Positions 806 to 55,762 of a DNA stretch of 64,000 nucleotides are shown here, one piece after another. The position numbers were made by a program, and so were the translations under genes. The stretch is from a bacterium (lineage in GTDB: Bacteria; Bacillota; Clostridia; Oscillospirales; CAG-272), in NCBI GenBank assembly GCA_963642885.1, contig CAVIJI010000005.1, forward strand, positions 22,185 to 86,184. The letters run 5' to 3'. Within the stretch, counting starts at the first letter, position 1; each line of letters opens with the position of its first letter. The notes below the pieces were generated by a model, which worked only from the letters and a program-made list of their open reading frames with translations, ran no database searches and had not been told where the DNA came from.

Positions 806-911
806 GAGGCGGCGGTTGACTTAAGTGTTAAGCCAAAGTATATCCGCCCGCATCTCTGATTTAACATCGAGGCGGCGGTTGACTTAAGTGCTAAGCTAAA
901 GTATATCCGCC
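806..911 (-). repeat. Two copies (806-848, 869-911; 63-bp period) of hairpin repeat module A. Read on the minus strand: tgtcGGCGGatatacttt...agtcaaCCGCCgcc
   Basis: The two 43-bp copies differ at 3 positions. On the minus strand the 5' end matches 27284-27295 (tgtcggcggata). The arms GGCGG/CCGCC are complementary. Confidence 0.85.
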
Positions 912-915
912 GACA

Positions 916-2562
916 TTATTTCCGTTCGATCATGCTTTCGTCCCACATTTCGGGAGCTTCGTAGCCGAGAAGATTTACTACTGTTGCGGCTATATTGGAC
1001 AGGCCGAACTTGCCGTCCTTCTTTACTGTGTAGGTATCGGCGAATTTGTTGTCGTATATAATGCACGGTACGGGATTCAGTGTATGGCTTGTCTTCGCCT
1101 TAAGCGAACCGTCGGGATTGTGCTTTACGGCGTGAGTCTTCTTGTCGAATTCCGCCATTTCATCCGCGTTGCCGTGGTCGGCTGTGATTATCGCAACACC
1201 GCCCACCTTGTCTACTACGGGAAGGATTCTGCCGAGCTGAAGGTCAAGCGCTTCCATAGAGCAGATAGTAGCCTCAAGGCTTCCCGTGTGGCCTACCATG
1301 TCTCCGTTCGGGAAGTTTACTCTGATGTAGTCGTACTTTCCGCTTTCGAGCGCTTCGATAAGCTTATCCGTTATTTCTGCACACTTCATCCACGGGCGCT
1401 GCTCGAACGGTACGATATCGGAAGGAACCTCGACATAAGTCTCGTATTCCTCGGAGAATTTACCGCTGCGGTTTCCGTTCCAGAAATATGTAACATGTCC
1501 GTACTTCTGTGTTTCGGAAATCGCATACTGGGAAATCTTCATGTCCGCGAGGTACTCACCCATTGTGTTTGTGATTTCGGGCGGGGAAACAAGATAGCGT
1601 GACGGAATATGAAGGTCTCCGTCATATTCGAGCATACCGGAGTAAATTACCTTCGGTGCTCTGACTCTGTCGAACTTATCGAAGTCCGCGCCGCCCTCGA
1701 ATGCCTTCGAGATTTCAATCGCACGGTCGCCTCTGAAATTGTAGAACACTACCGAGTCGCCGTCGTTAATCGTTCCGACGGGCTTTCCGTCCTCTGCGAT
1801 AACGAACGGAGGAAGATCCTGGTCGATGGCGTGTGTTTCGGCTCTGTAGGTTTCGACAGCTTCATGTGCGGATGCGAAGTATCTGCCCTCACCGAGAACG
1901 TGAGTTTTCCAACCGCGTTCAACCATAGACCAGTTTGCTTCGTAACGGTCCATTGTTATAGCCATTCTTCCGCCGCCGGATGCGATCTTGATGTCGCAGC
2001 CGTCTGTCGAAAGCTCTGCGATAAACTTTTCGAAGGGATCGATATAATCAAGTGCCGTTGTCTCGCCTACGTCACGGCCGTCAAGGAGGATGTGTACTCT
2101 GATTGTTTTAACGCCCGCTTTCTTTGCTTCGACGAGCATTGCCTTGAGGTGGTCTATATGAGAGTGAACGTTTCCGTCGGAGAAAAGACCTATGAAGTGC
2201 AGAACGGAACCGTTATTCTTTACGTTTTCGGTTAAAAGTTTCCATGTATCGGATGTAAACATCTTGCCTGATTCGATGGAGTTGGAAACGAGCTTGGCTC
2301 CCTGAGCGAATACCTGACCGCTTCCCAATGCGTTATGTCCGACCTCCGAGTTTCCCATATCGTCGTCCGACGGAAGACCTACGGCTGTACCGTGAGCCTT
2401 GAGAGTGAGCATGGGATATTTAGCCATGAGCATGTCGAGTGTCTGGGTTTTTGCGAGTTTTACGGCGTTTGCTTCGGATTCGGGTGCAAGTCCCACGCCG
2501 TCCATTACGATTGTAAGAACGGGTCTGATGGGTGCGCTTTCGATTTTTTTCAGTGTTTTCAT
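916..2562 (-). CDS. gpmI: 2,3-bisphosphoglycerate-independent phosphoglycerate mutase
   Basis: 548 aa. Motifs include VMDGVGL, DDMGNSEVGHNALGSG, HFIGLFSDGNVHSH, NFPNGDMVGHTG and ITADHGNADEM, typical of cofactor-independent PGAM. Confidence 0.93.
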   Translation of the reverse strand: MKTLKKIESAPIRPVLTIVMDGVGLAPESEANAVKLAKTQTLDMLMAKYPMLTLKAHGTAVGLPSDDDMGNSEVGHNALGSGQVFAQGAKLVSNSIESGKMFTSDTWKLLTENVKNNGSVLHFIGLFSDGNVHSHIDHLKAMLVEAKKAGVKTIRVHILLDGRDVGETTALDYIDPFEKFIAELSTDGCDIKIASGGGRMAITMDRYEANWSMVERGWKTHVLGEGRYFASAHEAVETYRAETHAIDQDLPPFVIAEDGKPVGTINDGDSVVFYNFRGDRAIEISKAFEGGADFDKFDRVRAPKVIYSGMLEYDGDLHIPSRYLVSPPEITNTMGEYLADMKISQYAISETQKYGHVTYFWNGNRSGKFSEEYETYVEVPSDIVPFEQRPWMKCAEITDKLIEALESGKYDYIRVNFPNGDMVGHTGSLEATICSMEALDLQLGRILPVVDKVGGVAIITADHGNADEMAEFDKKTHAVKHNPDGSLKAKTSHTLNPVPCIIYDNKFADTYTVKKDGKFGLSNIAATVVNLLGYEAPEMWDESMIERK

Positions 2563-2610
2563 TCTTATATCCTTCTATATTTTAATTGAAATCAGGGTAA
2601 ACATCTTTAT

Positions 2611-2843
2611 ACTTCAGTGTACAGCGGATTATAGGTATACCGCTTCTGTACTTCAGTGTACAGCGGATTATATGTATACTGCTTCTGCACTTCGGTGCAC
2701 AGCGGACTATAGGTATACCGCTTCTGCACTTCAGTGACAGCGGACTATAGGTATACCGCTTCTGCACTTCGGTGCACAGCGGATTATAGGCATACCGCTT
2801 CTGTACTTCAGTGACAGCGGATTATAGGCATACTGCCGTCTGC
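2611..2843. repeat. Tandem array of six 38-39 bp units with no spacers
   Basis: Units start at 2611, 2650, 2689, 2728, 2766 and 2805. Consensus is acttcRgtg(y)acagcggaYtataggYataccgcttctgY. Each unit holds an imperfect hairpin, gcacagcgg-N12-ccgcttctgc. Confidence 0.9.
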
Positions 2844-2845
2844 GG

Positions 2846-3391: not shown

Positions 3392-3504
3392 AGCCTTACC
3401 TGTTGTTCTGCGGCGCTGTCGCGGTTGACAACAGTACGCCGGTATGTTAAAATTACTCTACCGATCATCGGCTATTATTATATCACATCACGGTAGGCTT
3501 TTGT

Positions 3505-7754: not shown

Positions 7755-10073
7755 TTATCCGATTTCGATATCGACTCTTGCGGCCTGCAGACCGTCTGCG
7801 TATGCGTACAGACGAAGAGTGCCGTTTGCTTTGCATTTTACCGCGGCGGATATTTTTCCCGCGAACATACGGCGTATGTTTGATTTGAGAGGTTCGTGAT
7901 CGAATACGGCTGAGCCCGTTCCGGATATTTCTCCGCACTTGTTAACCTCGAAGCGTACGACGGGATCGGCGTTCGGTACCTCTCTTCCGTCGGAATCGAC
8001 GGTGTAACACGTGTATATCGCGGTGTCTCCCGGTTTAACATCGGGCGTTTCGCATCTCAGCATGAGCTTAACGGGAGCACCTGTCGTTTCGTGAGCGTCA
8101 CGACAGCATTCCACGCCGCCGTGATAGCCTATGACTTCGAGTTTTCCGGGATTATATTCGATTTCCCATGCGGCGTGATCGTGAGTGCCGAGCTCGACCT
8201 TGCCGCGGCTGATACCGTCGACAAATAACTCCGCACAATCACAGTTCGTGTAGGCCCAGACTCGCATTATTTCGCCCTCATGTCCGGGGTGAGTCCAATG
8301 CGGCATCAGATGTATCATGGGTTCCTGTGTCCACAAGGCTTTGTTCAGCCAGAACGCGTCTTTTTTCAGTAAGAACATATCGATGGCACCCGAGCATGAG
8401 CACAGCCGCGGCCATGTTGACTCTCCGCGGTGATCGAAGCCGATCCATTGGTATGAGCCCATTACCCATTCGCGTTCGTCGATGAACTTCCACGTTCTTT
8501 CACGTCCTCTGAACCAGTCGTTCGAGTCGCGGTCGTAGCAGTTTGTCAGCCCCATGGCGGGAAAATCGTCGTAATACCAGCCGCGGGTAGAGGATGTGGC
8601 ACAGCACTCGGTGGAAACAACCGCTTTGTTCGGGAATTTGGCATGAACGGCATCGTATGAATCGAGACCGTAGTTTATTCCGACAATATCGAGATTGTCA
8701 TAAACCGTGGAGTTGTCGGGGCGATCGCACGCCGCGGTTACGGGACGGGTATCGTCAAGCTGTCTTGTACGTGCGAGAAGCGATTCGAGAATGCGTTTTC
8801 CTCTTTCTTCGGCAAACAGCATTTCCTCGTTTCCGATGCACCAGAAAAAGACCGACGGACGGTTGCGGTCACGCTTGATAAGCATTTCAAGCTGTTTTAT
8901 GCCTTCGGGCGATGATGTGAACCAGCGTATTTCATCGAGTACGATAAATCCCGCCTCATCCAGTGCATCCATCAGCGCTTCGGCCTGCGGATAGTGACTT
9001 GTTCTGTAGCCGTTTGCTCCCATTTCCGCGAGAAGCTTTACCTTGTATCCGAAGATGTTGTCCGTAACGGCTTTTCCCACAAGACCGCAGTCATAATGTC
9101 CGCACACACCGCATATTTTTTCGTGATGTCCGTTTACGTAGAGACCGTGTTCCGAATCGCATATTACCTCACGGTACCCGTATCTGTCGCCGACACTGTC
9201 GATTTCTTTTCCGTCGGATATAACGGATGTGACTGCGGTGTAGAGATGACCGTCGCCCACCTGCCACAATATGGGTGAGAAAACGTCCGTGCCGTATTTG
9301 ACAACGGTGTCCGCACGTGCCTCAAGCACACATTCGGCGGAGCATTCACCCGCGCTTACACCGTTTTCGTCGTACAGCACCGTTTTTATCAAGGCGTTTG
9401 CCGCCGATGACGTTGTGTTTTTTACCGTAACTTCAATATCCGTACGCCAGTTGTCCGAGTCCGTTTTACGGGGCTTTATATATACACCCCATAAATCAAC
9501 GCAAATCGGAGAAGTTTTTACAAGCCATACATGACGATAAATGCCTCCGCCTTCGTACCACCAGCTTTCGTGGTGAGTCGAATCGATGTATACCGCTATA
9601 ATGTTGTCCTTATCGAATAAAACAAAGTCTGTGATATCGACCTCGAACGATGTGTAGCCGCTGTAGTTGTGGTACAAAGGACATCCGTTTACATACACTG
9701 TCGACTGTCCGCTGACGCCCTCGAAATACAGTGTAATGCGTTTTGTTCGGTCTTCTTCGCTTAAACGAAAATGACGGCGGTACCATGCGTTATCGTATTT
9801 GAAAAATCCGAGAGTGTTGTTTTCTTCCTTGTCGATATTTCCCTCAACGACAAAGTCGTGCGGAAGATTTACCGTATCCCAGCGATCGGAATTGTATTCC
9901 ACACCTTGTCTGTAGTCATCGGGATTGTCGTTGTAGTCGTAGGAAGCCGCGCCCCATCTTTCGCGTACTGTTTTCGCTCCCGTGTATATAGGGCCTTTGG
10001 ATGTGGGCCTTTTTTTGATTATGTCGCCTCTGTGAAACAGCCAACCGCCGTCGAGATTTATTTTTTGTCTCAT
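7755..10073 (-). CDS. Glycoside hydrolase family 2 (beta-galactosidase / beta-glucuronidase-like)
   Basis: 772 aa. N-terminal sugar-binding motifs are LDGGWLF, VNLPHDF and AWYRRHF. It also has YVNG and the TIM-barrel stretch GYRTSHYP...WCIGNEE. Confidence 0.85.
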   Translation of the reverse strand: MRQKINLDGGWLFHRGDIIKKRPTSKGPIYTGAKTVRERWGAASYDYNDNPDDYRQGVEYNSDRWDTVNLPHDFVVEGNIDKEENNTLGFFKYDNAWYRRHFRLSEEDRTKRITLYFEGVSGQSTVYVNGCPLYHNYSGYTSFEVDITDFVLFDKDNIIAVYIDSTHHESWWYEGGGIYRHVWLVKTSPICVDLWGVYIKPRKTDSDNWRTDIEVTVKNTTSSAANALIKTVLYDENGVSAGECSAECVLEARADTVVKYGTDVFSPILWQVGDGHLYTAVTSVISDGKEIDSVGDRYGYREVICDSEHGLYVNGHHEKICGVCGHYDCGLVGKAVTDNIFGYKVKLLAEMGANGYRTSHYPQAEALMDALDEAGFIVLDEIRWFTSSPEGIKQLEMLIKRDRNRPSVFFWCIGNEEMLFAEERGKRILESLLARTRQLDDTRPVTAACDRPDNSTVYDNLDIVGINYGLDSYDAVHAKFPNKAVVSTECCATSSTRGWYYDDFPAMGLTNCYDRDSNDWFRGRERTWKFIDEREWVMGSYQWIGFDHRGESTWPRLCSCSGAIDMFLLKKDAFWLNKALWTQEPMIHLMPHWTHPGHEGEIMRVWAYTNCDCAELFVDGISRGKVELGTHDHAAWEIEYNPGKLEVIGYHGGVECCRDAHETTGAPVKLMLRCETPDVKPGDTAIYTCYTVDSDGREVPNADPVVRFEVNKCGEISGTGSAVFDHEPLKSNIRRMFAGKISAAVKCKANGTLRLYAYADGLQAARVDIEIG

Positions 10074-13358: not shown

Positions 13359-14249
13359 ATGAAAACGAAGAAAATAGCGGCTGTTATACTGTCCGTGCTG
13401 ATGCTTATAACAGCGGTATCATGCGCGAAGAAAGAAGAAAGCATGACGGAGGAAGAAATACAGAACGCCATGAATGAGCTTTATGCGGAAGAAAACGAGC
13501 TGTTCGGCACTCATGCGGAACAGTGGGAGGTTGTTTTCGCGAACATGGACAAAGAGTCCGTTATGAACAACACCGACGATTACGCAACGTTTCTCGGTAA
13601 GAGTATAGATGCGTGTCAAAGTCTGTTCACCGCCGATGATCTGGCGATTCTCAAAGAGGATGTCGAAAAAATAAGGGAAATCGAAGAACAAATATCCGAA
13701 CTCAGTGAAAAAACGGCATCGGCATCGGATTCGTCATCGGTTTCCATGACAGCTTTTCCGAGCTTTGTCGGCAAGGATTTTGACGGCAACGATGTCGACA
13801 GCGGAATTTTCGCCGAAAATTCCGTCACGGTAATTAACTTCTGGTTCAACGGCTGTTCTCCGTGCGTGAATGAACTCGGAGATTTGAACGCGCTGAACGA
13901 ATCACTTAAGGAACGCGGCGGCGAGCTTATCGGAATAAACGTCGAAGCGTTTGACGGAAACGAAAGCATCATAACCGAAGCGAAATCGATTCTCGCATCG
14001 AAAAACGCGTCTTACAGAAACATATACTTTGACTCGAACAGCGAGGCGGGACAATACGCGGCGCAGATTATGGCGTTCCCGACGACTGTATTCGTCGACA
14101 GACAGGGGAATATCATCGGCGACCCGATAGTCGGAAGCATTAACGATGATGAGGGCATGAAAAAAGTGAACGAACGTATCGACGAGATAATCGCGGCGGA
14201 TGAAGTGAGTGCAAACGCGACTGTTATATCGGGCTATGTGGAAGGATAA
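13359..14249 (+). CDS. Lipoprotein with a TlpA/ResA-like thioredoxin-fold domain (thiol:disulfide oxidoreductase)
   Basis: The signal peptide plus lipobox is MKTKKIAAVILSVLMLITAVSC. The Trx-fold motif is VINFWFNGCSPCVNELGDL, with active site C-S-P-C. Confidence 0.8.
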   Translation: MKTKKIAAVILSVLMLITAVSCAKKEESMTEEEIQNAMNELYAEENELFGTHAEQWEVVFANMDKESVMNNTDDYATFLGKSIDACQSLFTADDLAILKEDVEKIREIEEQISELSEKTASASDSSSVSMTAFPSFVGKDFDGNDVDSGIFAENSVTVINFWFNGCSPCVNELGDLNALNESLKERGGELIGINVEAFDGNESIITEAKSILASKNASYRNIYFDSNSEAGQYAAQIMAFPTTVFVDRQGNIIGDPIVGSINDDEGMKKVNERIDEIIAADEVSANATVISGYVEG

Positions 14250-15658: not shown

Positions 15659-17167
15659 ATGAATAAAAGACTTACAGCTCTGATACTTGCCGGCATTATT
15701 CTGTGCTCGACGGTAGCATGCTCGAGCGGAACCGAAAATTCCGATAGCGGCAGCGAAACGACAGCGGATACCGCGGTGGCAGACACGCAGACCGAAACCG
15801 AAACGGCGGAACCGGACAATATGACGCCTGCGGAGGAACGCGCCCTTATTCCGGATGATCTTCCCGAGAAATCATTTGACGGACGCACATTCTCGATGGC
15901 TGTTGAAGCTAATAAGGCGTATGAAATAGTTTCCGATGAGCTTATAGGTGAGGCTACATCGGATGCGGTATACGACAGAAACATTAGAATCGAAGACCGT
16001 TTCGATGTTAAAATCAATGCCATTCCGACGAGTGAGCCGCACAACAAGATGAAAACCGAGGTAACGGCGGGAACAAATTCATTTCAGGCGGCGGGATTCT
16101 GGAATTTCGTGTCCTATGTACCGATTATGGCAAAGGTTGTATACAACTGGTGCGACATACCGTATATAAACCTCGATCAGCCCTGGTACAACAAGATGTC
16201 AAATGACGATGCAACGATAAACGGTAAGCTTTACGTTATAAACGGCGACCTTTCCATATCCACGCTTCTGTATACATACGGTATGTTCTTCAATTACAAT
16301 ATTATGGACAGATACGGCTATACCGGAGATGACCTTTACAATATGGTATTCGACGGCACATGGACCGTAGACAAAATGCACTCGATTACAACCAATATCT
16401 ACGAGGACACAAACGGTGACGGCTTGCATGACCGCGATGACGTTCACGGATATTCGGTATACCTCGGTTTAAACACGAGTGACGTATGGCTTGCCGCGTT
16501 TGATCTTGATGTTATTGATGTACATGATGACGGTACATTCGAAATCACATTTCTCAACGAAAAGACTGTTTCAGCACTTGAAAAGGCAATTACTCTGACA
16601 TATGATGAGAACGGCACGTACTGTAACACCAATGACTGGCGTGATGTACCGAAGGCATTCGGAGAGGGTAAAATCGCCATGTCCCAGCTTTATTTCGGTG
16701 AAACTACGGAATCTCTGAGTGATATGGAAGATAAATACGGTATTCTTCCTCTTCCGAAGTTCGATGAGGCTCAGACGGATTACTACACCAATGCGTGGGA
16801 CCAGTTCTCCGTATTCGCTATTCCGAAGACGATTTCAGAGGAAGACAAGGAGCTTCTCGGTGTGATTTTCGAAGCACTTAACGCGGAATCGTATAAAACC
16901 GTTTATCCGGCATATTACGACCAGGCACTCAAGAGCCGTTACTCGGCAGAAGCTACCACTGCCGAAATCATCGATATAATCATGAGAGGACGTAAGCTTG
17001 AGTTTGCATTCCAGTTCGGCGAACAGACGGCATCTCTTCCGTATAAGTTCCGTCAGCTCCTTCAGCAAAACAAAACTGATCTTGCGTCTACATTCAAAAC
17101 TATAGAAAAAACGGCAACCAAGACATTCCAGAAGGTTATGGATGTTTACTACGGCTCGGAAGAATAA
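15659..17167 (+). CDS. Extracellular solute-binding lipoprotein (ABC-type sugar-binding family), paralog 1
   Basis: The lipobox is LCSTVAC. Motifs shared with 33965..35467 and 41039..42556 are DAVYxRNI, QPWY/PWW, DGTWT/EGKWT, the DxNGDG calcium-like loop and LPLPKFDEAQ. Confidence 0.75.
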   Translation: MNKRLTALILAGIILCSTVACSSGTENSDSGSETTADTAVADTQTETETAEPDNMTPAEERALIPDDLPEKSFDGRTFSMAVEANKAYEIVSDELIGEATSDAVYDRNIRIEDRFDVKINAIPTSEPHNKMKTEVTAGTNSFQAAGFWNFVSYVPIMAKVVYNWCDIPYINLDQPWYNKMSNDDATINGKLYVINGDLSISTLLYTYGMFFNYNIMDRYGYTGDDLYNMVFDGTWTVDKMHSITTNIYEDTNGDGLHDRDDVHGYSVYLGLNTSDVWLAAFDLDVIDVHDDGTFEITFLNEKTVSALEKAITLTYDENGTYCNTNDWRDVPKAFGEGKIAMSQLYFGETTESLSDMEDKYGILPLPKFDEAQTDYYTNAWDQFSVFAIPKTISEEDKELLGVIFEALNAESYKTVYPAYYDQALKSRYSAEATTAEIIDIIMRGRKLEFAFQFGEQTASLPYKFRQLLQQNKTDLASTFKTIEKTATKTFQKVMDVYYGSEE

Positions 17168-18666: not shown

Positions 18667-20268
18667 TTACTCCGCGATTTCCGCGTTTACGATGCCGTCC
18701 GTGAATTTAAAGGTAAATTTAACTACACAGTTGTCGCGCGTGGTAACGAACCTGCTCTTGCAGCCCGAACCGCTTCCGGGATGCCGTGTTCCTTCTCTGT
18801 ATACGGAGGACAGAGTACCGTAGGTCGAAATTCCGTAATTGTATTCACCCGCAAACGGAATTACGACGCTTAACATATAGGTATTGTCTCCCACATAGTA
18901 CATACGTGTGATTTCGCTGTTCGAGTCATCCTCGACGGCGCCGACGAACGGCTGGAAGCTGCCGAATACCACAACCTTTTCGGGAAGCTTGTATCCCGTT
19001 TCGGAGTCGTAAACCTCACATCCTCCGTAATGAATAAGCTCCGCGGGATTGGCGTACTTTTCACGCAGACGGTCTCCGTCATCCCAGCACGCTTTCATGA
19101 CGTCTTCCTGATCGAAGCCCATGGGACAGGATGCGGATTTGTTGTTTATCTGATAATACGGGTTTGTTCCCATTTCGCCGTTGTCGCCGCGCTCCATCGT
19201 GACGCGGGCATCGCTCAGCATACGTCTGAGCGGCATTTCGAAGAAGCCGTGAGGGTTGTTTACCTGCATCCAGCGATATGTATATTCGATGAAGTGGTTG
19301 CGGACATCCTCGTTTTGGTTTGCAAACCAGCCGATTTGGTCGTAACCCCACCATTGCCACAGTGCCATTTGGTGTCTTGAGTATTTCGGGAGATCCTCGT
19401 CACGGAACATTTTTCCGCCCCAGTTGTCGTATTCCATAAGGTACGGCATTTGTTCGCAGTACCAGCCGTTGGGGTTCATTCCGCCCTCGCTGAAACCCTC
19501 GCGTACGAGCACGAGACGTGTGCCTTCGTAATTCTCCAGAGGAGCGCGCGTGAGCGGCATGGCGTGATAGTCGAACATCAGATTTCCGTTAATGCTGACT
19601 CCGTGAGTGTGAGCGTCAAGCAATACCTTGTGACGGCGTGCGTGTTCGGACGCATATGAACGTATCATACCGAACAGCTCCCATGTTTTCTTCATGCCGC
19701 GGTCTTCCGCCGTGTACAGATGAACCTGACCCATGTGCAATGCTTCGTAGCCGCAGTCGATGTATTTAGTGGCACGGTAATAGAACCACATACGTGCTTC
19801 GTCTCGGTTGAGGTCGGGCATGCATCCTCTTTTGCCGAGCGGTCTGTCGGGCGGGAATTCACCCGGCTTGCTTCCGTCCTCCGGCATCATACGTGCATCC
19901 TCGAAGCGGAAACAGCGGTCCTCGACAGGCTTACCGAATGCTTCGAAAACGTATGCGGGGATTTTCTGCTCGTTTATGCGCTGTGTGACGATTTCGAACA
20001 CACATGCCTGAAGAATTATCTCGGGGTCCTGCTCGTGTATTCTGTCGGCCAAAGCCTTGGATTTAGCGAAATGTACGTCGTCATCCTCGAGCATGTACCA
20101 GATTCCCGACGCGCGGCCTATGAACTTAACGCCGAGACGCTTTATCACACGCAAATCATCCTCAAGCGTGTCCGTGTCGAACAGCGAGCTTGCGGTAACG
20201 GCGCGTGAGAGATAGCTTTCGAGTACCTCGAGCGACATATTTCCGTCGAATTTAAAATTAAGATTCAT
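18667..20268 (-). CDS. Hypothetical protein (533 aa); possibly glycoside-hydrolase-like with a C-terminal beta-sandwich, unassigned
   Basis: The start is moved to the ATG at 20268 (MNLNFKFDGN...). The track ORF start at 20370 would overlap the GH4 gene end. I recognise no diagnostic motif. Confidence 0.6.
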   Translation of the reverse strand: MNLNFKFDGNMSLEVLESYLSRAVTASSLFDTDTLEDDLRVIKRLGVKFIGRASGIWYMLEDDDVHFAKSKALADRIHEQDPEIILQACVFEIVTQRINEQKIPAYVFEAFGKPVEDRCFRFEDARMMPEDGSKPGEFPPDRPLGKRGCMPDLNRDEARMWFYYRATKYIDCGYEALHMGQVHLYTAEDRGMKKTWELFGMIRSYASEHARRHKVLLDAHTHGVSINGNLMFDYHAMPLTRAPLENYEGTRLVLVREGFSEGGMNPNGWYCEQMPYLMEYDNWGGKMFRDEDLPKYSRHQMALWQWWGYDQIGWFANQNEDVRNHFIEYTYRWMQVNNPHGFFEMPLRRMLSDARVTMERGDNGEMGTNPYYQINNKSASCPMGFDQEDVMKACWDDGDRLREKYANPAELIHYGGCEVYDSETGYKLPEKVVVFGSFQPFVGAVEDDSNSEITRMYYVGDNTYMLSVVIPFAGEYNYGISTYGTLSSVYREGTRHPGSGSGCKSRFVTTRDNCVVKFTFKFTDGIVNAEIAE

Positions 20269-20326
20269 TAATCGGTTTCTCCGTGTATTCTGTGTTATAG
20301 TGATTTTTTGTAAAGCCGGAAACGCA

Positions 20327-21688
20327 TCAGCCCAAAATAGGTTCGCCGTATGCCTCGTTGTAATCGGCAATCAGCTTTTTCGCGAGTGAATAAGAATTAA
20401 TGAGCGGGTGCATCATGAGCGCTTCTACCGCCTTGTCCTCGCTGTGCTCGCGTACGGCTTCGACCGTAAGTCTTTCGTAACGCTTTATGAGACGGATGTA
20501 AAGCTCACACATTTCGGGTATGGATGTCTGAGCCACGGGTTCGATTCCGTTTTTCGTTACCTTGCAGGTAACCTCGACTACGTCATCGTCCGAAAGGAAG
20601 GGAATAGAGCCGTTGTTCAGTATGCTGAGCACGAGAGTGCGTCCCTCTTCGCTTTGCATTCCTTCGATGCAGTCGAGCATAACACCCGCATAACCCATGC
20701 CTTCGGGAACGGGCAGACTGCCCTTTTCAAGCATCGGACGGTTTGCGGTACCCGATTCGATAGACATATAGCTGTTTTCGCGCAACTGCATGTAGTACAG
20801 GAAGGTTTGCAGAGCTTCCTCGGGATTTGCGTCGATATCCATAGCCTTCAGCTCACGCATCATGGCGATGTTGACCTTTTCTATGGTCTGACCGCGCGTC
20901 ATTTCGGATTTTTCGATGTTGGCGAGCGCGCGTTCACGGTGGTAATAGTAGTAAAGATATTCGTTCGGAAGCATTCCCGTCTTGCGGATTACGTCGCGGT
21001 CGAATATTTCAAGCTCCTGTATACTCGAAAGGAATGCGTCGTCTGCTATCAGCTTAGGCATGATTTCCTCGCCGTGCAGCTGTACGCTCTTTATCCACGA
21101 CAGGTGATTGAGCCCGAAGAATTCGACGTAAAGCTCTTCCTCCGTAACGCCGAGATTGTTTGCCATGCGGTATTTCATGCTGCTGGGAGCGTCACAGATG
21201 CCGATTATACGGTGGTATCCCGCACTGTGCAGAGCCTGTGTAACGAGTCCCGATGGATTTGTGAAATTGAATATCCACGCATTGGGAGCGTATTTCTCGA
21301 TAAGCTCGCAGTAGTCTATCAGTATCGGTATGGTACGCACCGCCATAGAAAATCCGCCGACACCCGTGGTTTCCTGACCTATGACGCCGTTTTTCAGTGC
21401 CACCGCTTCGTCAATCACGCGGGAATGGTCGCCGCCGACACGCAGCGTGGTAACTATGTAGTCCATTCCGCGTATAGCCTCCACGGGGTCGTACACCTCA
21501 CGTACCTCGAGGTCCATGCCCTCTCTCGCCACAACGTGACGGCAAAGCTTTCCGATTATCGCAAGCTTTTCGAAATCGGTGTCGTAAAGTACAACCGAGT
21601 CTATGTCGAGCTTTTTGTATCTTTTGAGAAGGCCGTTTATGAATATTACGGTACGGACACCCGCACCGCCGATAACTCCGATTTTCAT
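20327..21688 (-). CDS. Glycoside hydrolase family 4 (NAD+/Mn2+-dependent; 6-phospho-glycosidase or alpha-glycosidase)
   Basis: MKIGVIGGAGVRT is a Rossmann motif. NFTNPSGLVTQAL, IIGICDAPSS and FGLNHLSW fit GH4. Confidence 0.85.
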   Translation of the reverse strand: MKIGVIGGAGVRTVIFINGLLKRYKKLDIDSVVLYDTDFEKLAIIGKLCRHVVAREGMDLEVREVYDPVEAIRGMDYIVTTLRVGGDHSRVIDEAVALKNGVIGQETTGVGGFSMAVRTIPILIDYCELIEKYAPNAWIFNFTNPSGLVTQALHSAGYHRIIGICDAPSSMKYRMANNLGVTEEELYVEFFGLNHLSWIKSVQLHGEEIMPKLIADDAFLSSIQELEIFDRDVIRKTGMLPNEYLYYYYHRERALANIEKSEMTRGQTIEKVNIAMMRELKAMDIDANPEEALQTFLYYMQLRENSYMSIESGTANRPMLEKGSLPVPEGMGYAGVMLDCIEGMQSEEGRTLVLSILNNGSIPFLSDDDVVEVTCKVTKNGIEPVAQTSIPEMCELYIRLIKRYERLTVEAVREHSEDKAVEALMMHPLINSYSLAKKLIADYNEAYGEPILG

Positions 21689-27281: not shown

Positions 27282-27283
27282 TG

Positions 27284-27429: not shown

Positions 27430-27460
27430 CGAAAGAGCGGACATAGAAAGAAGGAGAAGT

Positions 27461-32837: not shown

Positions 32838-32916
32838 TTATCTTTCGCCGAGGTCTTTCATGGCGATTTCGACGAAATGAGTTTATCTTTCGCCGAGGTC
32901 TTTCATGGCGATTTCG
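32838..32916 (-). repeat. 34-bp perfect direct repeat (32838-32871 and 32883-32916) duplicating the last 10 codons plus the stop of the transketolase N-subunit gene
   Basis: ttatctttcgccgaggtctttcatggcgatttcg occurs twice, 45 bp apart. On the minus strand it reads EIAMKDLGER*. Confidence 0.9.
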
Positions 32917-33964: not shown

Positions 33965-35467
33965 TCAGTTTGCGGTATTTGCGTCAATCAGTGCAAGCAT
34001 TTCATCAAGTGCGGTCTGAGAGCTTTCGTAATATTTTTCGATCTGAGATACCATTACAAAATCCTTCTTGTTCGTTTGGTACGAGAAAATACTGCTCAGC
34101 TTGCTGAACCAACCGAAGCCTTCCGCCCAGTCGTATACCTTGGATGCGAGAACATAGTCGAGCATTTCCTTCGTTTCCTCGTCGCGTATCAGCTTTGAAC
34201 CGAGAATGAGCTCGTACAAGGTGTTGTTGACAGTATCGGTGGAATAGCCGCTCATTACATCAAGCACAACGGCGCTGAGCTCGGGATCCGAGACAGATGT
34301 GGGAATCGACATTGAGGTACACCAAATCGGGTTTACAAGAGAACTGTAGGCTTCCTGTTCCTCGGAATATTTCGGAAGCGGAAGAAGAGTGAAGTCGGAT
34401 TCCATATCGCGGAATTCGTTTATGCATCCGAGCAGCTCGTAATAAAGAACATTGCGGTCTTCCTTCATCATCGTACAGCAGGTTCCGTTGTCGCCCTGGT
34501 AGATTGAGCTTGAACTGACGACGGTGTTGTATATTTTTTCAGCCGCATTCAGGTAAGATTCTTCCTTGCACGCAATAACGGGAACGCCGTTTTCGTCCAT
34601 ATGCGTGTTGAGCGCACCGGAGCCGCTCATAAGATGGTAGAGCGCGCCGCCGTTGTCGCAGAAGCCCCATGCATCGGTTTTGTCCATCTTACCGTCGCCG
34701 TTTATATCGTTCGTTACGGCATCGGCAATGCTCATCATGTTGTCAAGTGTCCACTTGCCTTCACGGACAAGCTCTTTCGGATTGGTTAACGAATTCTGCC
34801 CGATAACGTTCATATTGCAGAAAATAACCGGTACCGCATAGTCATCGAAAACATTGTAGTGCCCTGCTACCGTGTAGAGAACCTCGTTTTTGTAGGTGAA
34901 GTTCGAGATAATGTTCTGATCCCACCACGGTGCGGATAAGTCCATTCCCGAGAGGGATTTCAAATTATAGACTTTGCTGTTTATTCCGAGCGTTATATTA
35001 TAACTCAGACTGTACAGTACAAGGTCGCAGTTGTCGTCTCCGGACATGACGGAGTTGGTTACATAAGTCGAGATGTCGCCCACATCGAATACGGGACTTA
35101 TTTTTACGTTCAATAGGTCTTCCGTGAGAATGTTGCGCTTGTACACGGCATCGTTGTAGCTGTCGCCTGTTTCCGATTCATAGTATACCTCGTTGGCATC
35201 GGAGCTTATCTTGCCGTAGAAAAAGGTTCCGGGTGAGTATGCGAGAATGCGGTAGCCGTATCCCATGTAGTCGTGGTCACCGTATTTTGCCGCAACGGTG
35301 TCTGTGACGGTTGTTTCGGATTCAACCGCGGGTGTCTCATCAACCGATGCGATACTGCTGTCGTCTGTCTGTGACTGCACCTCGGACGTATCGCCGCACG
35401 ATGCAAACGTTCCGCAGAGCATAAGGGCAGCGAGCAAAAGTGAAACTCGTGATCTTGCGTTTGCCAT
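33965..35467 (-). CDS. Extracellular solute-binding lipoprotein, paralog 2
   Basis: The start is set at 35467 (AAAGGAG 8 nt upstream). MANARSRVSLLLAALMLCGTFASCG carries the lipobox. Paralog motifs are NDAVYKRNI, APWW, VREGKWT, DINGDGKMD and LPLPKYSEEQ. Confidence 0.75.
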   Translation of the reverse strand: MANARSRVSLLLAALMLCGTFASCGDTSEVQSQTDDSSIASVDETPAVESETTVTDTVAAKYGDHDYMGYGYRILAYSPGTFFYGKISSDANEVYYESETGDSYNDAVYKRNILTEDLLNVKISPVFDVGDISTYVTNSVMSGDDNCDLVLYSLSYNITLGINSKVYNLKSLSGMDLSAPWWDQNIISNFTYKNEVLYTVAGHYNVFDDYAVPVIFCNMNVIGQNSLTNPKELVREGKWTLDNMMSIADAVTNDINGDGKMDKTDAWGFCDNGGALYHLMSGSGALNTHMDENGVPVIACKEESYLNAAEKIYNTVVSSSSIYQGDNGTCCTMMKEDRNVLYYELLGCINEFRDMESDFTLLPLPKYSEEQEAYSSLVNPIWCTSMSIPTSVSDPELSAVVLDVMSGYSTDTVNNTLYELILGSKLIRDEETKEMLDYVLASKVYDWAEGFGWFSKLSSIFSYQTNKKDFVMVSQIEKYYESSQTALDEMLALIDANTAN

Positions 35468-35506
35468 AATGAAATCTCCTTTGCATAAAATAAATTTGTT
35501 GAAAAC

Positions 35507-35535
35507 AGTATAACATAACGAAAATTCCTTGTCAA
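35507..35535 (-). promoter_or_regulatory. Sigma-70-like promoter for paralog 2
   Basis: Minus strand: TTGACA (35535-35530), 17-nt spacer, TATACT (35512-35507). Confidence 0.5.
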
Positions 35536-35629
35536 GCACCTATATAAAAATAAAAAAACGCACAAAATAAAATTAACTATAAAATAGTTGTACCGAATCA
35601 TGCGACACAAATCAGGATTATACGTAAGA

Positions 35630-41038: not shown

Positions 41039-42556
41039 TTATTCCTCGCCTAATAAGCCTTCGAGATTCTTGTTAAGCAGTATTTTCGCGGATCTCATCG
41101 ATTTTTCGTATGCGGACGCTATGTCTGTTTTTCCGTCGTTCGCATTGGATTCGATTGCATCACTCAGAACGGAGATACCGAGAGTGTCGGAAAGACTGAA
41201 TGTACCCGTATCGAATACTATGTTAAGCATTTCCGAGCTGTCCTCATCGCGAATATACTTGAAGTTAAGTGTGGTCTCGGTGTAAGCAGAGCGCATATCA
41301 CCGTAAGATTCCGCACAAAGATTTTCGAGAATAACGCCTGTTCTTTCGGTATCGAGATTGGTTTTGGGAATACCGCAGACGGCGGCGTATGCCGCTATAA
41401 GGCTTACGTAATTTTCCTGAGCCTCATCGTATTTCGGGAAAGGAACCACACCGAATTCCGCATCCATATCACGCAGACTCTTGAGAGAGCCTACGGGGTC
41501 GGCATAGAACATTGCGTGTTCCTGTGTGAACAGTCCCATGAATCCACCGTATTGAGCGTCGACTTCGCTTATTATTTTACCGCAATAATGTCCGTCATTT
41601 ACGGCGGTGAGCATGTTTACAAGGCTGTCGTATACGGAATAGAATCTGTCGCCGAGAGTTATGAATTCGGGAATTCCTTCGCTGTTCTTTTCCATAATGG
41701 TCTCGCCTGTGCTGTAAACGAATGCTTTTATACAGCCACTGTATGCGGCAAGACCGTATCGGTCGTCTACATCAATCTCGCCGTTTCCGTTGAGGTCAAG
41801 CACGGCTGCGGACAGATATTGAGAAAACATATCGTAAGTCCATTTGCCCTCACGTACAAGATCGTACGGTACACTGAGATTAACAGAATCCATGATGTTC
41901 TTGTTGAAGCCGAGCAGCCAGTACGATTCTCTGAACATAAGATGCAAATCGCCTACAAGGAAGTACAGCTTGTCCTTTACTTCGATATCTTCCATTGCAT
42001 TTGCCGACCACCACGGTTTTTCGAGATTCAGTGATTCGATTTCGTTTACATTCACGAGAGAACCTTTGGTCGCGAACGGTGCCACAAATTTGCTTTCGTT
42101 CCAGAAACAGTCGTAGGTGTTGGTGTTAGCCGCAATTTCTTTGTTCATCGCCGACGTAACATCATTGTAGTCGAGCAGGTTTTCATTCAAGACTATTCCG
42201 AGCTTGTCGGCAACCTTAATATTTCTGTTGTAAACGGCATCGTTAAGGATTTCTCCGGTGAGCTCCTCGGTAGTCATGAACGTGTAGGCAAAGTTGCTGA
42301 TGTTGTTCAGAAACGTGAATTCATATCCGTCGTAATTTCCGCTCGGAACATCGGCATAAAGCGCGGCGAGCTCGGAGTCCTCTGTTTCTTCCGTTACGGC
42401 TTCTGTTTCGGCTTCCGTTTCGGCTGCGGCAGTCTCGACAACCGCAGTGGAATCGGTATCGCCGCCGTCACTGTTATCGGATGCTTTTTCGGAGCACGAC
42501 GCGAGCGGCATGAGCATAAGTGCGGCGAGTATTAATGTGAATAATCTCTTTTTCAT
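41039..42556 (-). CDS. Extracellular solute-binding lipoprotein, paralog 3
   Basis: The start is set at 42556 (AAGGAG upstream). MKKRLFTLILAALMLMPLASC carries the lipobox. Paralog motifs are NDAVYNRNI, KPWW, VREGKWT, DLNGNGEID and VPFPKYDEAQ. Confidence 0.75.
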   Translation of the reverse strand: MKKRLFTLILAALMLMPLASCSEKASDNSDGGDTDSTAVVETAAAETEAETEAVTEETEDSELAALYADVPSGNYDGYEFTFLNNISNFAYTFMTTEELTGEILNDAVYNRNIKVADKLGIVLNENLLDYNDVTSAMNKEIAANTNTYDCFWNESKFVAPFATKGSLVNVNEIESLNLEKPWWSANAMEDIEVKDKLYFLVGDLHLMFRESYWLLGFNKNIMDSVNLSVPYDLVREGKWTYDMFSQYLSAAVLDLNGNGEIDVDDRYGLAAYSGCIKAFVYSTGETIMEKNSEGIPEFITLGDRFYSVYDSLVNMLTAVNDGHYCGKIISEVDAQYGGFMGLFTQEHAMFYADPVGSLKSLRDMDAEFGVVPFPKYDEAQENYVSLIAAYAAVCGIPKTNLDTERTGVILENLCAESYGDMRSAYTETTLNFKYIRDEDSSEMLNIVFDTGTFSLSDTLGISVLSDAIESNANDGKTDIASAYEKSMRSAKILLNKNLEGLLGEE

Positions 42557-42604
42557 TGTTTTCTCCTTATATTTAAAATAATATTTTCGTACATCGGACT
42601 TTAC

Positions 42605-42633
42605 ATTGTACAACAAAGCGCGGGAAAAGTCAA
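42605..42633 (-). promoter_or_regulatory. Sigma-70-like promoter for paralog 3
   Basis: Minus strand: TTGACT (42633-42628), 17-nt spacer, TACAAT (42610-42605). Confidence 0.5.
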
Positions 42634-42693
42634 CGAGAATATGAAAAGACTTTTTGCGGGTATGGTCTCGGTCGGATATCATCGGAAAAATAT

Positions 42694-48488: not shown

Positions 48489-49214
48489 ATGACACAATTC
48501 AAACATACGCGCCAACTCCTGACCTCGCAAATAATACTTGTTCATCCTGCAAGCGCCGCTCACTATCTACTCGAGGGAAGGGCGCTTGTTTGTCTTGTCA
48601 GGCATGGACAGACGGACTGGAATATTATAAAACGTCTTCAGGGCAGGGAAAATATCCCTCTTAACGAAAACGGTCACGATCAGGCAAGGCTTATTTCCAC
48701 AGTCATGAAGCGTACGAAGAAAAGCGGCGTCGCGTATGCCGCCGTGTGCACATCACCTCTTTCGAGGGCTGTTGTTACCGCGGAATACATTGCGGAATCG
48801 GTAGGCGTAGAAGAACCGACCGTGGTCGACAGACTGATCGAACGTGACTACGGAGCGTTATCGGGGCTTACGCTGGATGAGAGAAAAAAGATGTTTCCGA
48901 ACGGCGAAAAGCACGCCGATGATGTCGAGACAGTTCCGCAGGCTGCCGCACGCATGCTCGGTGCCATAGATGATATGCTTGAGGTGTCGGAACGGAAAAC
49001 CGTTATCGGGGTAACACACGGAGGCTTGATTAACGCGGTTTTTTCTCGTCTTACCTCCGGTGAGATAGGTACGGGAAAAACGCTGACGGTGAACTGCAGT
49101 GTCAGCTGTATTGCGGCGGGAATAGGCGAGCCTATACCGCTCGCGTATAATCTGCAGAACGATTATGCGGCGGAATACATAAACAAGCTGCTCTGGTGCG
49201 GAGCGGAAATATAG
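48489..49214 (+). CDS. Histidine phosphatase family protein (phosphoglycerate-mutase-like)
   Basis: The LVRHGQTDWN catalytic RHG motif and VTHGG are present. The start is set at the ATG at 48489, 8 nt after GGAGGA. The N-terminal extension is unusually long, about 40 aa. Confidence 0.75.
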   Translation: MTQFKHTRQLLTSQIILVHPASAAHYLLEGRALVCLVRHGQTDWNIIKRLQGRENIPLNENGHDQARLISTVMKRTKKSGVAYAAVCTSPLSRAVVTAEYIAESVGVEEPTVVDRLIERDYGALSGLTLDERKKMFPNGEKHADDVETVPQAAARMLGAIDDMLEVSERKTVIGVTHGGLINAVFSRLTSGEIGTGKTLTVNCSVSCIAAGIGEPIPLAYNLQNDYAAEYINKLLWCGAEI

Positions 49215-49575
49215 CGGGGATTTCTTTACGGTGAGTAGTGGAGACAACCGCCCCGCTATCGAGATTGCCTTTTTTCAAACTTTGAAAAGTTTGAAAATTG
49301 CCTTCGGCAAGCAGTCAATCTCCGAATATGAGGCTTGGAAATATAGCGGGGATTCACTGCAGCTTGGCAGTGGAGACAACCGCCCCGCTATCGAGATTGC
49401 CTTTTTCAAACTTTGAAAAGTTTGAAATTGCCTTCGGTAAGCAGTCAATCTCCGAATATGAGGCTTGGGAATACAGTGGGGATTTCTTTACGGTGAGCAG
49501 TGGAGGCAACCGCCCCGCTATGAGGCTTGGGAATATAGCGGGGATTTCTTTACGGTGAGTAGTGGAGACAACCGT
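49212..49575 (+). repeat. Mosaic hairpin repeat array: A-B-C, A-B-C, A-C, then a truncated A (module A at 49212, 49344, 49474, 49536)
   Basis: A is tAGCGGGGatttctttacggtgagtagtggagacaaccgCCCCGCTa. B is the long hairpin GAGATTGCC...ttcaaactttgaaaagtttgaa...CAATCTC. C is gaatatgaGGCTTGGaaata. The first A starts on the TAG stop of the upstream gene. Confidence 0.9.
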
Positions 49576-51294: not shown

Positions 51295-51295
51295 A

Positions 51296-53773: not shown

Positions 53774-53934
53774 AAAATAATATGACTTGCCTTATATTGT
53801 CGGTCACGCTGCTGTGATCGGACGATACAAGGGTAAAAACACATATTGAGAGTGACAGAGAACTCACGGCAGCAAACCAATTCGTGGGTTCTCTTTACTT
53901 TTTATAAACAAATGTAATCCTGCGGAGAGAGTTA

Positions 53935-54459
53935 ATGATATTCGAGAAACTTCTTATGCCGAATGAGGTTTATTCATCATTCGAAGAGCTTACCCCGGAG
54001 CACGTGAAAAAGCTCGGTAAAAAATATATCTTTTCGGATATAGACAACACCTTGGCGACATATGATGATATGTATCCGCCCGAGAACGTAATAAAGTGGT
54101 GTTCTCTGATGGCGGAGAACGGGATAAAAGTCGCGTTTGTGTCAAACAACAACGCCGAAAGAGTGGAAAAATTCAATTCGGCTTTCGGTTATGCCGCATA
54201 TGCGGACGCGGGAAAGCCGAAAACGAAGAAGCTGAGGCTTGCCATGTGCGAATACGGTGCGGATGCCGAGAATTCGATACTGCTGGGGGATCAGCTGCTG
54301 ACGGACGCGGCCTGTGCAAACCGTGCAAAGCTATACTGCATTATAGTTCCGCCGATTAAGGATAAAAAGACTCTTTTCTTCCGCTTCAAGAGATTACTCG
54401 AAAAGCCGTACATGAAGAAGTTCATGGAAAGCCGAAAGACTGATTACGATAAAAAATGA
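53935..54459 (+). CDS. yqeG: YqeG-family HAD-IIIA phosphatase
   Basis: FSDIDNTLA is HAD motif I. VSNN and the GDQLLTD motifs are also present. Confidence 0.8.
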   Translation: MIFEKLLMPNEVYSSFEELTPEHVKKLGKKYIFSDIDNTLATYDDMYPPENVIKWCSLMAENGIKVAFVSNNNAERVEKFNSAFGYAAYADAGKPKTKKLRLAMCEYGADAENSILLGDQLLTDAACANRAKLYCIIVPPIKDKKTLFFRFKRLLEKPYMKKFMESRKTDYDKK

Positions 54460-55556
54460 AAGGAACATATATAAAAATGTCAATTGTATCAAATCGAATC
54501 AACAATCTGCAGAATGAAATGAAAAAGCTGGGTATCGATGCCGTTTACATCAACTCACCCGAGAACCATCTGTATTTTTCGGGCTTCGACAACCCCGACG
54601 GATATATTGTTGTAATGTGCGACAAGACGTATCTGTTTGCCGACTTCCGTTATATCGAGGCTGCTAAGGAGGAATCCGACCCGTCCATTATTGTTTGTCT
54701 TCCCGGTCAGCCGTCCGTTAAGGAGCTTGTTCATGACTACGGAATTAAGTCTATCGGCTATGAGGATCAGAGAATGACCTGTGCGGAGCTTGAAGGACTT
54801 AAGCGTTCCGCTGGAGACGACAGCATCGAATACAAGCCCATGGGCGGACTCTTTGTAGAGATTCGTTCATACAAGACCGAGGATGAGGTCGAAAACATAG
54901 TTGCGGCACAGAGAATCGCGGAAGGTGCATTTGAGCACATTTTAAAGACAATAACAAGAGATATGACGGAGATCGAGGTTGCGGCCGAGCTTGAATACTA
55001 CATGAAGAAACACGGCAGTCAGAAGCCGTCGTTTGACACTATCTGTGTATCGGGCACTGCTTCGTCGAGACCTCACGGTGTTCCGAGAAATGTCAGACTC
55101 GAGAGCGGATTCTTGACGATGGATTACGGTGCAATGGTAAACGGATACCATTCCGACATGACAAGAACGATTGTTGTAGGCAAAGCCGATGATGACATGA
55201 AAAAGCTGTACAACACTGTATTAAAGGCTCAGCTTGCCGCTATCGATGCGATTACGGAAGGTGCTAACAATGCCGCCATGGATAAGGTAGCGAGAGACAT
55301 TATCGACAATGCGGGATACAAGGGATGCTTCGGACACTCACTCGGTCACGGTGTAGGTCTTGAAATACACGAACAACCCGGACTTCACGCAAGAATGGGA
55401 GATGCTACTCTTAAGGTAGGTCAGATTGTTACGGATGAGCCCGGCATATACATTGAAGGCAAATACGGCTGCCGTATCGAGGACATGATTCTTATAACAA
55501 AGGGTGGCAAGAGAAATCTTACAAACTGCCCGAAGGAGCTTATTGAGGTCTGCTGA
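54456..55556 (+). CDS. M24-family Xaa-Pro aminopeptidase/dipeptidase
   Basis: DYGAMVNGYHSDMTRT, GHSLGHGVGLEIHE and EPGIY...G.RIED are pita-bread metal ligands. ATGA overlaps the yqeG stop. An alternative start lies at 54477. Confidence 0.85.
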   Translation: MKGTYIKMSIVSNRINNLQNEMKKLGIDAVYINSPENHLYFSGFDNPDGYIVVMCDKTYLFADFRYIEAAKEESDPSIIVCLPGQPSVKELVHDYGIKSIGYEDQRMTCAELEGLKRSAGDDSIEYKPMGGLFVEIRSYKTEDEVENIVAAQRIAEGAFEHILKTITRDMTEIEVAAELEYYMKKHGSQKPSFDTICVSGTASSRPHGVPRNVRLESGFLTMDYGAMVNGYHSDMTRTIVVGKADDDMKKLYNTVLKAQLAAIDAITEGANNAAMDKVARDIIDNAGYKGCFGHSLGHGVGLEIHEQPGLHARMGDATLKVGQIVTDEPGIYIEGKYGCRIEDMILITKGGKRNLTNCPKELIEVC

Positions 55557-55762
55557 GTGGGGATGTACTTCAGCCGAGCAGGAGAGAGATACACCCCACA
55601 CCCGTGAATTTCACGGGTGTGAAATTCTCCGTTATGAAAGCTTAGGCTTGATGTGGGGATGTACTTCAGCCGAGTAGGAGAGAGATACACCCCACACCCG
55701 TGAATTTCACGGGTGTGAAATTCTCCGATATGAAGGCTTAGGCTTGAGGTGGGGATATATTC
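55557..55762 (+). repeat. Mosaic hairpin repeat array: A-B-C, A-B-C, then a truncated A (96-bp period)
   Basis: A is GTGGGGatgtacttcagccgagcaggagagagatacaCCCCAC at 55557 and 55653. B is acccgtgaatttcacgggtgtgaaattctccg. C is tatgaaRgcttaGGCTTGAg. The array starts directly after the pepP-like TGA. Confidence 0.9.

Follow-up and report, generated by a model that had tools for sequence, protein, structure and literature searches.

Five arrays of short hairpin repeats, built from three recurring modules termed A, B and C, were found between genes in a 64,000-nt stretch of DNA (hereafter the window; contig CAVIJI010000005.1 of assembly GCA_963642885.1) from a clostridial bacterium of the CAG-272 lineage. 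The stem of module A is under structural constraint, its pairing being maintained by compensatory change, and four of the five arrays begin directly behind the stop codon of a gene that reads in the same direction. With moderate confidence, the repeats are regarded as a lineage-restricted, non-coding, modular family similar to the REP, BIME and BOX elements, which would be co-transcribed with neighbouring genes and would act, if at all, as an RNA structure at 3' ends. The follow-up covered the window together with syntenic DNA of relatives, gathered via exact-protein and homologue look-ups, and reached about 350 kb of the genus. According to blastn, one related locus (L001) is 100 % identical to the window at the nucleotide level, a sister species (L139-L142 and L149-L151) about 83.5 %, a further group (L143-L146) about 78 % and another (L122, L125 and L126) about 75 %.

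All five repeat loci proposed in an earlier, sequence-only reading of the window do hold repeats, as established by re-reading of the sequence and by Tandem Repeats Finder and a second repeat finder, the latter contributing the two-copy arrays 1 and 2 (Table 1). That reading had counted about 15 copies of module A; the window contains 14 complete ones (2+2+5+3+2 in arrays 1 to 5), one truncated copy and one 8-nt stub. Arrays were written out on the strand of the element itself, and every stem-loop with a perfect 5-bp stem was listed. Module A then starts with a tag that is mostly (C/T)GTC; a usually G-rich 5' arm (5 nt or more), the dinucleotide AT, the rest of the loop, a complementary 3' arm and TC(C) follow in this order. 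Its core stem of 5 bp extends up to 9 bp, and three tags remain unpaired, namely (C/T)GTC before the 5' arm, AT after it and TCC after the 3' arm. The stem is preceded by TGTC, CGTC or TCTC in arrays 1-3 and in the sister species, and instead by ATAG in array 4 and by TGAG or TGATG in array 5. Among 20 copies from the two species, 16 have a loop of 31 nt, three have one of 32 nt and a single copy has one of 33 nt; the first third of the loop carries a semi-conserved ATWYACTTCAG, the last five positions read A-W-N-C-N, and the middle is freely variable. GGAU stands at the stem-loop junction in most copies. The arms listed earlier are present and complementary, but the GGAT and CAACC flanking them there are not universal: CAACC is confined to one subfamily, and the GG of GGAT is dispensable because the sister species' orthologue of array 3 reads GCCGC-AT.

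Module B is a strong hairpin of 9-13 bp that follows a TC and is closed by GAGAAT/ATTCTC. Its inner 5-7 bp vary by locus with complementarity kept (TTCAC/GTGAA and GCTTC/GAAGC in the window, TTCCG/CGGAA in the sister species), as had been proposed before; this covariation was read directly from three stem types, the MAFFT alignment having one sequence out of register. A second type of B, GAG(A/T)TT...ATTGCCTT(A)CGGCAAGC...CTC, is common to array 4 and the sister species' array in the liv operon and is able to carry further nested hairpins. Module C, a linker with GGCTTG, had been assigned to the family as a whole and is present in arrays 2, 4 and 5 only, the arrays at 806 and 35630 being devoid of GGCTTG. 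The tags, the frame TC-GAGAAT...ATTCTC-CG and GGCTTG recur between loci with different stems, and the strings TCGAGAAT and ATTCTCCG are, like GGCTTG, common to unlinked loci.

Covariation in module A was assessed on an alignment of 19 copies from the two species, chosen by array membership and not by pairing. Standard pairs occupy 95 of 95 stem cells (100 %), the corresponding figures being 66 % for shuffles and 40-68 % after sliding of the partner column, and four of the five stem pairs show changes on both sides. The covariation score of 0.76 (shuffles, 0.15) was reached by none of 500 shuffles. RNAalifold independently returned exactly this 5-bp stem and nothing else, and no conserved inner helix in the loop. 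Thus, the compensatory stem change claimed in the sequence-only reading stands. Arm types comprise GGCGG, GCGGG, CGGGG, TGGGG, GCAGG, GCCGC and one U-G variant. Two G-U pairs in total occur on the sense strand, one in array 4 and one in L151, where a 3' arm reads CTGCC; the variant in array 4 had been advanced as an argument for RNA, and it exists, but two such pairs are a strand hint too few to decide the matter. An alternative pairing of each 3' arm with the 5' arm of the next unit, as in a view of the units as CRISPR-like repeats, was rejected, since neighbouring copies with different arms match their own partner only. Compared with shuffles, complete units show better folding (z about -3 to -4), an effect due mainly to module B.

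Four arrays begin 0-1 nt behind the stop codon of a gene with the same orientation (gpmI, TAA; livG, TAG; histidine phosphatase, TAG; M24 peptidase, TGA), and their core stems start 0-4 nt after it, in agreement with the anchoring noted previously. At empty sites, the stop codon is followed by 13 to about 25 nt of unoccupied sequence, and five starts at positions 0-1, counting the 39-nt array described below, would be very unlikely under uniform placement by our own estimate. For the livG-livF spacer, selection alone could account for the position because a ribosome-binding site fills the remainder. The four arrays are co-oriented with the upstream gene and should be transcribed, since they lie ahead of its terminator or of the next cistron. 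Units within an array all point the same way; both orientations occur within the 64 kb, following gene direction and not replication.

Array 3 departs from this pattern. Previously placed on the plus strand, it belongs on the minus strand: read on the plus strand it shows A, a long linker, B and a short linker, whereas on the minus strand the order is A, TC, B and a 22-nt linker as elsewhere, with a 31-nt loop. The assignment follows from a covariance model (R2) built without array 3 copies, which matches array 3 and its orthologues on the minus strand only (E = 5e-4 to 5e-3). Nor does array 3 lie behind a stop codon, as it occupies the space between two divergent promoters, filling the gap between the -35 boxes (36066 and 35535) of a perfect TTGACA-17-TATAAT, starting at 36066, in front of the GH38 enzyme gene and of TTGACA-17-TATACT in front of the minus-strand gene (35535-35507). 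Right after its last unit, a weak terminator-like hairpin with a T-rich run was noticed (35588-35610, minus strand). This makes it conceivable that the array is transcribed separately; upstream, a convincing promoter was not detected. The minus-strand open reading frame (ORF) 33965..35539 (GTG start, 524 aa) is probably overlong at its start, in the region 35467-35539: the promoter at 35535-35507 lies inside it, and its orthologues have 500 aa.

Comparison with relatives revealed both empty and occupied sites. The livG-livF spacer measures 13 nt in L143 (about 78 % identity), 179 nt in the window and 239-376 nt in the sister species, the arrays of which share the architecture, begin TAG-CGTC and comprise one or two units depending on the strain. 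In the liv array of L139, neighbouring A copies carry the arms GCGGG/CCCGC and then GGCGG/CCGCC around differing loops of 31 nt each. Array 2 is identical in L001. An orthologue of array 3 occupies the same site in the same orientation in L139, L142 and L149, with the left flank ttttgtcaagtgtc, module B GAGAATGCTTC...GAAGCATTCTC, loops of 31 nt throughout and the arms GCCGC/GCGGC in place of the GCAGG/CCTGC of the window; this orthologous pair is taken as compensatory change at one and the same site. Inside this orthologue, L142 has a run of N at about 8480-8580 (minus-strand view), where the assembler left the unit number unsettled, and unit numbers from metagenome assemblies are uncertain generally. 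At the M24 peptidase gene, the empty site in L146 reads TGA|ATATAAAATAAG (ATAT), then a terminator. In the window, an insert of 206 nt stands precisely at the junction of TGA and ATAT; it begins and ends with GTGGGGAT and has no target-site duplication. Behind gpmI, L125 and L126 show the stop codon, about 25 nt and the terminator, with no insert.

A different insert of about 105 nt was observed at the same spot behind the gpmI stop codon in L122 (11651-11760; also in L124). It forms a long imperfect palindrome with 28-nt arms of 82 % complementarity, is preceded by CCTAAGGAT and followed by GAGGCTTCC, and shares TTAAATCAGAG with the linker of array 1 and GAGGCTT with module C.

Searched over 278 kb (window and related loci), a covariance model of module A matches array copies only and none in the relatives of 75-78 % identity. 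Arrays are absent at about 78 % identity, and two are kept at orthologous sites across about 83 % identity; presence varies between close species. These comparisons show the arrays to be dynamic insertions, members of one homologous family in two species. Wider pattern scans added no copies: in a scan of a genome collection with GGATN{18,24}AGWCAACCGCC, a loose pattern, all of the at least 120 matches listed were attributable to chance, as were all 12 matches of a metagenome scan with a B-C pattern and the single match of two viral scans. A blastn search of two arrays against plasmids and phages gave no match.

Copies within an array are 90-100 % alike, those from different loci about 50-70 %. 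The tail of an internal linker reproduces the end of the neighbouring gene: that of array 4, GGAAATATAG, equals the last 10 nt of the gene, the tail GGAAATAG of the sister species' liv array corresponds to GGAGAATAG at the livG end, and that of array 3, CAATCGTGTC, to CAAGTGTC. In addition, arrays end in partial units, namely the 8-nt stub of array 5 and the copy of A without 3' arm in array 4. Because of these gene-end copies, the partial end units and the strain differences in unit number, growth by local tandem duplication (slippage or unequal exchange) after a first insertion is inferred. A tandem duplication unconnected with modules A to C was noticed at 32838-32916 (minus strand), comprising the last 33 nt of the transketolase N-subunit gene including the stop codon and a 12-nt spacer, ACTCATTTCGTC. 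It is present in two copies in the window and in 2.8 copies in L139 (13836-13961), and the spacer can pair with the gene end across the stop codon (CGGCGAAA/TTTCGTCG). The same process would accordingly act at other gene ends in this lineage.

Table 1 Repeat arrays of the window and their modules (positions in the window; TRF, Tandem Repeats Finder; finder 2, second repeat finder)
Feature	Position	Strand	Composition	Setting	Repeat finder
Array 1	806-916	minus	TGTC tag, A 871-911, 22-nt linker holding TTAAATCAGAG, A 808-848; no B hairpin	follows gpmI TAA (916-918); gpmI terminator next at about 741-778	finder 2: 806-916, two copies
Array 2	27282-27431	plus	A 27286-27328 (extended stem 27283-27331), B 27334-27360, C 27361-27385 (contains GGCTTGAG), A 27386-27427	between livG (TAG 27279-27281) and livF	finder 2: 27278-27436, two copies
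Array 3	35628-36065	minus	five A, four B, 22-nt linkers		TRF: 35628-36065, period 97, 4.5 copies
Array 3, A copies	36020-36060, 35922-35963, 35825-35865, 35728-35768, 35630-35671	minus			
Array 3, B hairpins	35986-36014, 35888-35916, 35791-35819, 35694-35722	minus			
Array 4	49211-49574	plus	A, long B, C, A, B, C, A, C, truncated A	begins on TAG (49212-49214) of histidine-phosphatase gene	TRF: 49205-49574, periods 130 and 62
Array 4, A copies	49215-49255, 49347-49387, 49477-49517, 49536-49574	plus	extended stem 49211-49259 in the first; one U-G pair in the third; 3' arm missing in the last		
Array 4, B hairpins	49261-49322, 49393-49452	plus	first one long		
Array 5	55557-55762	plus	two A-B-C units, then 8-nt stub GTGGGGAT (55749-55756)	directly after TGA (55554-55556) of M24 peptidase gene; host terminator at about 55770-55800	TRF: 55557-55763, period 96, 2.2 copies
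Array 5, A copies	55558-55598, 55654-55694	plus			
Array 5, B hairpins	55604-55629, 55700-55725	plus			
39-nt array	2611-2843	undecided	5.8 units of ACAGCGGATTATAGGTATACCGCTTCTGYACTTCRGTG		TRF: 2611-2843, period 39, 5.8 copies

A sixth tandem array at 2611-2843, absent from the earlier list, is possibly related to the A family. Its 39-nt units each contain a short hairpin (AGCGG-12 nt-CCGCT) together with GTACTTCAG, a motif that A loops have as well. Read on the minus strand, the array starts right behind the TAG (2846-2848) of a YpsA-like gene; its tags (arm-AT ... arm-TC) match the plus strand, on which it would lie antisense to the flanking genes. It is not present in L122, L125 and L126, and neither of the covariance models R1 and R2 matched it.

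The comparisons show that units entered the short untranslated stretch right behind stop codons, and that arrays change in unit number and in module content. According to the favoured reading as a co-transcribed repeat family, the units would then have multiplied in place by tandem duplication, taking a few gene-end bases along. Four of the five arrays would be transcribed together with the upstream gene, and the element would be read as a folded single strand. Its main effect on the host would be that of a structured 3' untranslated region or intercistronic RNA: a hairpin beginning only 0-4 nt behind the stop codon could impede ribosomes at termination, and the B hairpins, being strong, could act as a barrier to 3' exonucleases or as sites of processing. 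Several observations limit this reading or weigh against it. The constrained molecule may be RNA or single-stranded DNA, which the data cannot separate; the argument in the sequence-only reading that the conserved structure speaks for a transcribed RNA and not for debris is hence not upheld, complementary changes being normal in REP families as well (PMC3733652). Distinct arm types number only about seven, and the worry that a few founder copies were amplified locally is answered in part, as arms differ within one array of the sister species and between orthologous arrays. Module A alone is predicted to be a marginal hairpin and a poor exonuclease block, since its loop interior is no more structured in constrained folds than shuffled loops (z -1.5 to +0.9). 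Array 3 is probably part of neither flanking mRNA. Near-identical copies at two loci are lacking and recent movement is not shown, the family was seen in only two species-level lineages of the genus DNA covered, and genes for transposases, recombinases or reverse transcriptases are absent from the window. Finally, the units form head-to-tail arrays, unlike REP units, which pair head-to-head or tail-to-tail, and BIMEs, which alternate.

The main rival, rather unlikely, is that the repeat is selfish DNA and nothing more, moved in single-stranded form by an enzyme specific for structure. This enzyme, for which HUH/Y1 transposases (RAYT or IS200/IS605 type) and other recombinases are candidates, would be encoded at another place in the genome and would recognise the hairpin of module A together with its fixed tags, irrespective of stem sequence, with transcription and any RNA effect being incidental. 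The exact insertion without target-site duplication, the fixed unpaired tags around a stem of free sequence, the (C/T)GTC tag recalling the CGTC-tagged REPs, the position of array 3 outside transcription units and a loop kept in length without loop structure, as if measured by a protein, are consistent with such an origin. Orientations that follow gene direction rather than replication and the lack of identical copies at different loci speak against it; the search for a RAYT-like gene, suggested in the earlier reading, revealed no gene for such an enzyme, be it RAYT, another Y1 transposase or a recombinase, within the window and some 300 kb of related loci, and the CGTC REPs are themselves without a known transposase. 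It is quite improbable that A is a dedicated RNA tag, the site of one RNA-binding protein that would read its fixed tags and measured loop and so mark a set of mRNAs for shared post-transcriptional control, with a CsrA-like reader of GGA as one candidate. A stem strictly kept although thermodynamically marginal, loop ends and length preserved across about 83 % identity, GGAU at the stem-loop junction of most copies and the sense orientation of four arrays in transcripts would suit such a role, but GGA is lost in a sister array (GCCGC-AU), the flanking genes share no common function, presence varies between close species and one array is probably not in an mRNA. Somewhat broader, and improbable too, is the proposal that module A is the recognition hairpin of an undescribed structure-specific enzyme or RNA-binding protein which disregards the stem sequence, reads the tags, measures the 31-nt loop and places units exactly at stop codons or acts on them there; if true, the family would not be a passive repeat like REP but either a mobile element aimed at stop codons or a system that tags 3' ends throughout the genome.

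That there is neither family nor mobility, each locus having duplicated a hairpin of its own by slippage and the likeness being chance or convergence, is very improbable. Near-identical copies within arrays, linker tails copied from local gene ends and the unrelated gene-end duplication at 32838-32916 agree with it, yet module order, tags and the strings shared by unlinked loci, a fifth locus found by a model built from four others, and empty sites in relatives without a precursor hairpin do not. An array of known function, i.e. CRISPR, a type III antitoxin RNA or integron attC sites, is hardly credible. A constant 31-nt segment between repeated parts recalls CRISPR; these segments are near-identical rather than unique, no cas genes lie nearby, and A loops taken as guides gave chance-level matches only against the window and related loci. 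Type III antitoxin arrays consist of tandem RNA units of 36-45 nt directly upstream of a gene for a ToxN-type endoribonuclease. Likeness to them is confined to the 39-nt array with its 5.8 units and to form; it is neighboured by gpmI and the YpsA-like gene, and no ToxN-like gene follows. Integron attC sites are likewise hairpins of recombination type behind stop codons, conserved in structure and length in spite of drift in the stem sequence; they possess complementary R''/R' boxes (RYYYAAC, GTTRRRY) and flank cassettes next to an integrase gene. In the family described here, the flanking strings (C/T)GTC and TCC are not complementary, RYYYAAC/GTTRRRY boxes are missing (GTTG(A/T)C on the opposite strand does not conform to GTTRRRY), the neighbours are housekeeping genes and no integrase gene is nearby. 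Near-identical segments, absent partner genes and non-complementary flanks thus rule out these three readings.

The window has a G+C content of 47.6 %, and the names of proteins with 82-85 % identity assign it to uncultured 'Ruminococcaceae/Clostridia bacterium' genomes. Its gene content is that of ordinary housekeeping and sugar use: gpmI, cysE/cysS, livJHMGF, clpB, transketolase, a GH38 enzyme, fucose isomerase, the M24 peptidase and ABC transporters. Genes adjoining arrays are gpmI, the YpsA-like gene, livG/livF and those for the histidine phosphatase, an HMA protein, the M24 peptidase and the GH38 enzyme. Four ORFs of 500-570 aa, 15659-17167 (plus) and 18667-20370, 33965-35539 and 41039-42682 (all minus), belong to no Pfam or NCBIfam family; one of them adjoins array 3. 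Two are 24 % identical over 508 aa, with an aligned N-terminal stretch comprising a hydrophobic run that ends in Ser-Cys and is read as lipoprotein-like, and the four may represent a lineage-specific family of secreted or binding proteins. Two ABC-transporter genes with a spacing of about 40 nt in L122 and L125 are separated in L126 by a non-coding stretch of about 410 nt (13610-14021), which is non-repetitive and unrelated to the A-B-C family.

REP-type repeats are well studied in Proteobacteria, and far fewer families are described from Firmicutes, such as BOX, RUP and SPRITE of streptococci (PMC3049150). The present family is of interest for its combination of exact placement behind stop codons without target duplication, a free stem, a 31-nt loop and head-to-tail arrays. 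Two related species with different arms and unit numbers at the same loci provide a natural series on arrival, spread and keeping of such repeats, and the family could be used to ask if stop-codon hairpins adjust termination or the decay of mRNA in Firmicutes, an effect reported for the REPs of E. coli. If it is only selfish DNA, its practical value is modest, as a marker for strain typing; the arrays collapse in metagenome assemblies.

The family had not been recognised as a named one, and comparison with Rfam is in line with this: no match attained the gathering score, searches of every array by E-value gave chance-level matches only, and there was no phage or plasmid match either. The likeness to REP/BIME and BOX elements proposed at the time is apt. 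REPs and BIMEs are short hairpin repeats of intergenic DNA, situated mostly downstream of genes or in between cistrons and often a few nt from the stop codon (PMC3733652). Complementary stem changes and mosaics with linkers are common to them and to the arrays described here, which would also be co-transcribed, as REPs are (PMC3733652, PMC12306157). A survey of REPs (Di Nocera et al. 2013), which makes no mention of Firmicutes, found complementary changes behind the variation of stems and REP ends that frequently adjoin a flanking gene's stop codon or provide it (PMC3733652). The window also shows a short intergenic palindrome in many copies, with 14 full copies of A in five arrays that are all intergenic. 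REP stems of 6-13 bp with loops of 2-20 nt contrast with 5-9 bp and 31-33 nt here, the A hairpin is much weaker than a REP, and its stem sequence, unlike that of REP, is free even within one array. REPs have been sorted into GTAG- and CGTC-tagged superfamilies, the CGTC tag often reading TGTC or CCTC (PMC3733652). CGTC REPs, with their 3-nt unpaired tail and no dedicated transposase known (PMC3733652), resemble the present family in the short 3-nt tail, in the unpaired (C/T)GTC that arrays 1-3 and the sister species, but not arrays 4 and 5, show 5' of the stem and the lack of a transposase gene in the window and related loci. They differ in an 8-9 bp stem starting with A-T pairs, a loop of 4-5 nt, a CCA tail and head-to-head dimers, compared with a GC-rich 5-bp stem, a 31-nt loop, a TCC tail and tandem arrays here. 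Considering stem and loop sizes and dimer organisation, the family is not filed as a member of REP.

In E. coli, a REP that lies no more than 15 nt from a stop codon causes ribosomes to stall (Liang 2015, cited in PMC12306157). All four stop-anchored arrays lie within this distance, and hindrance of the ribosome is therefore a testable mode of action. BOX elements, compared here by description, share with the family their occurrence in Firmicutes, a modular build with module numbers varying between strains and a predicted ability to fold if transcribed, and are themselves expressed together with neighbouring genes (PMC3049150). They contain a single boxA and a single boxC that pair as terminal inverted repeats, and only boxB is repeated (PMC3049150), whereas the whole A-B-C unit is repeated here and its ends do not pair. 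By modular build and co-transcription, BOX is the nearest Firmicute analogue of the family.

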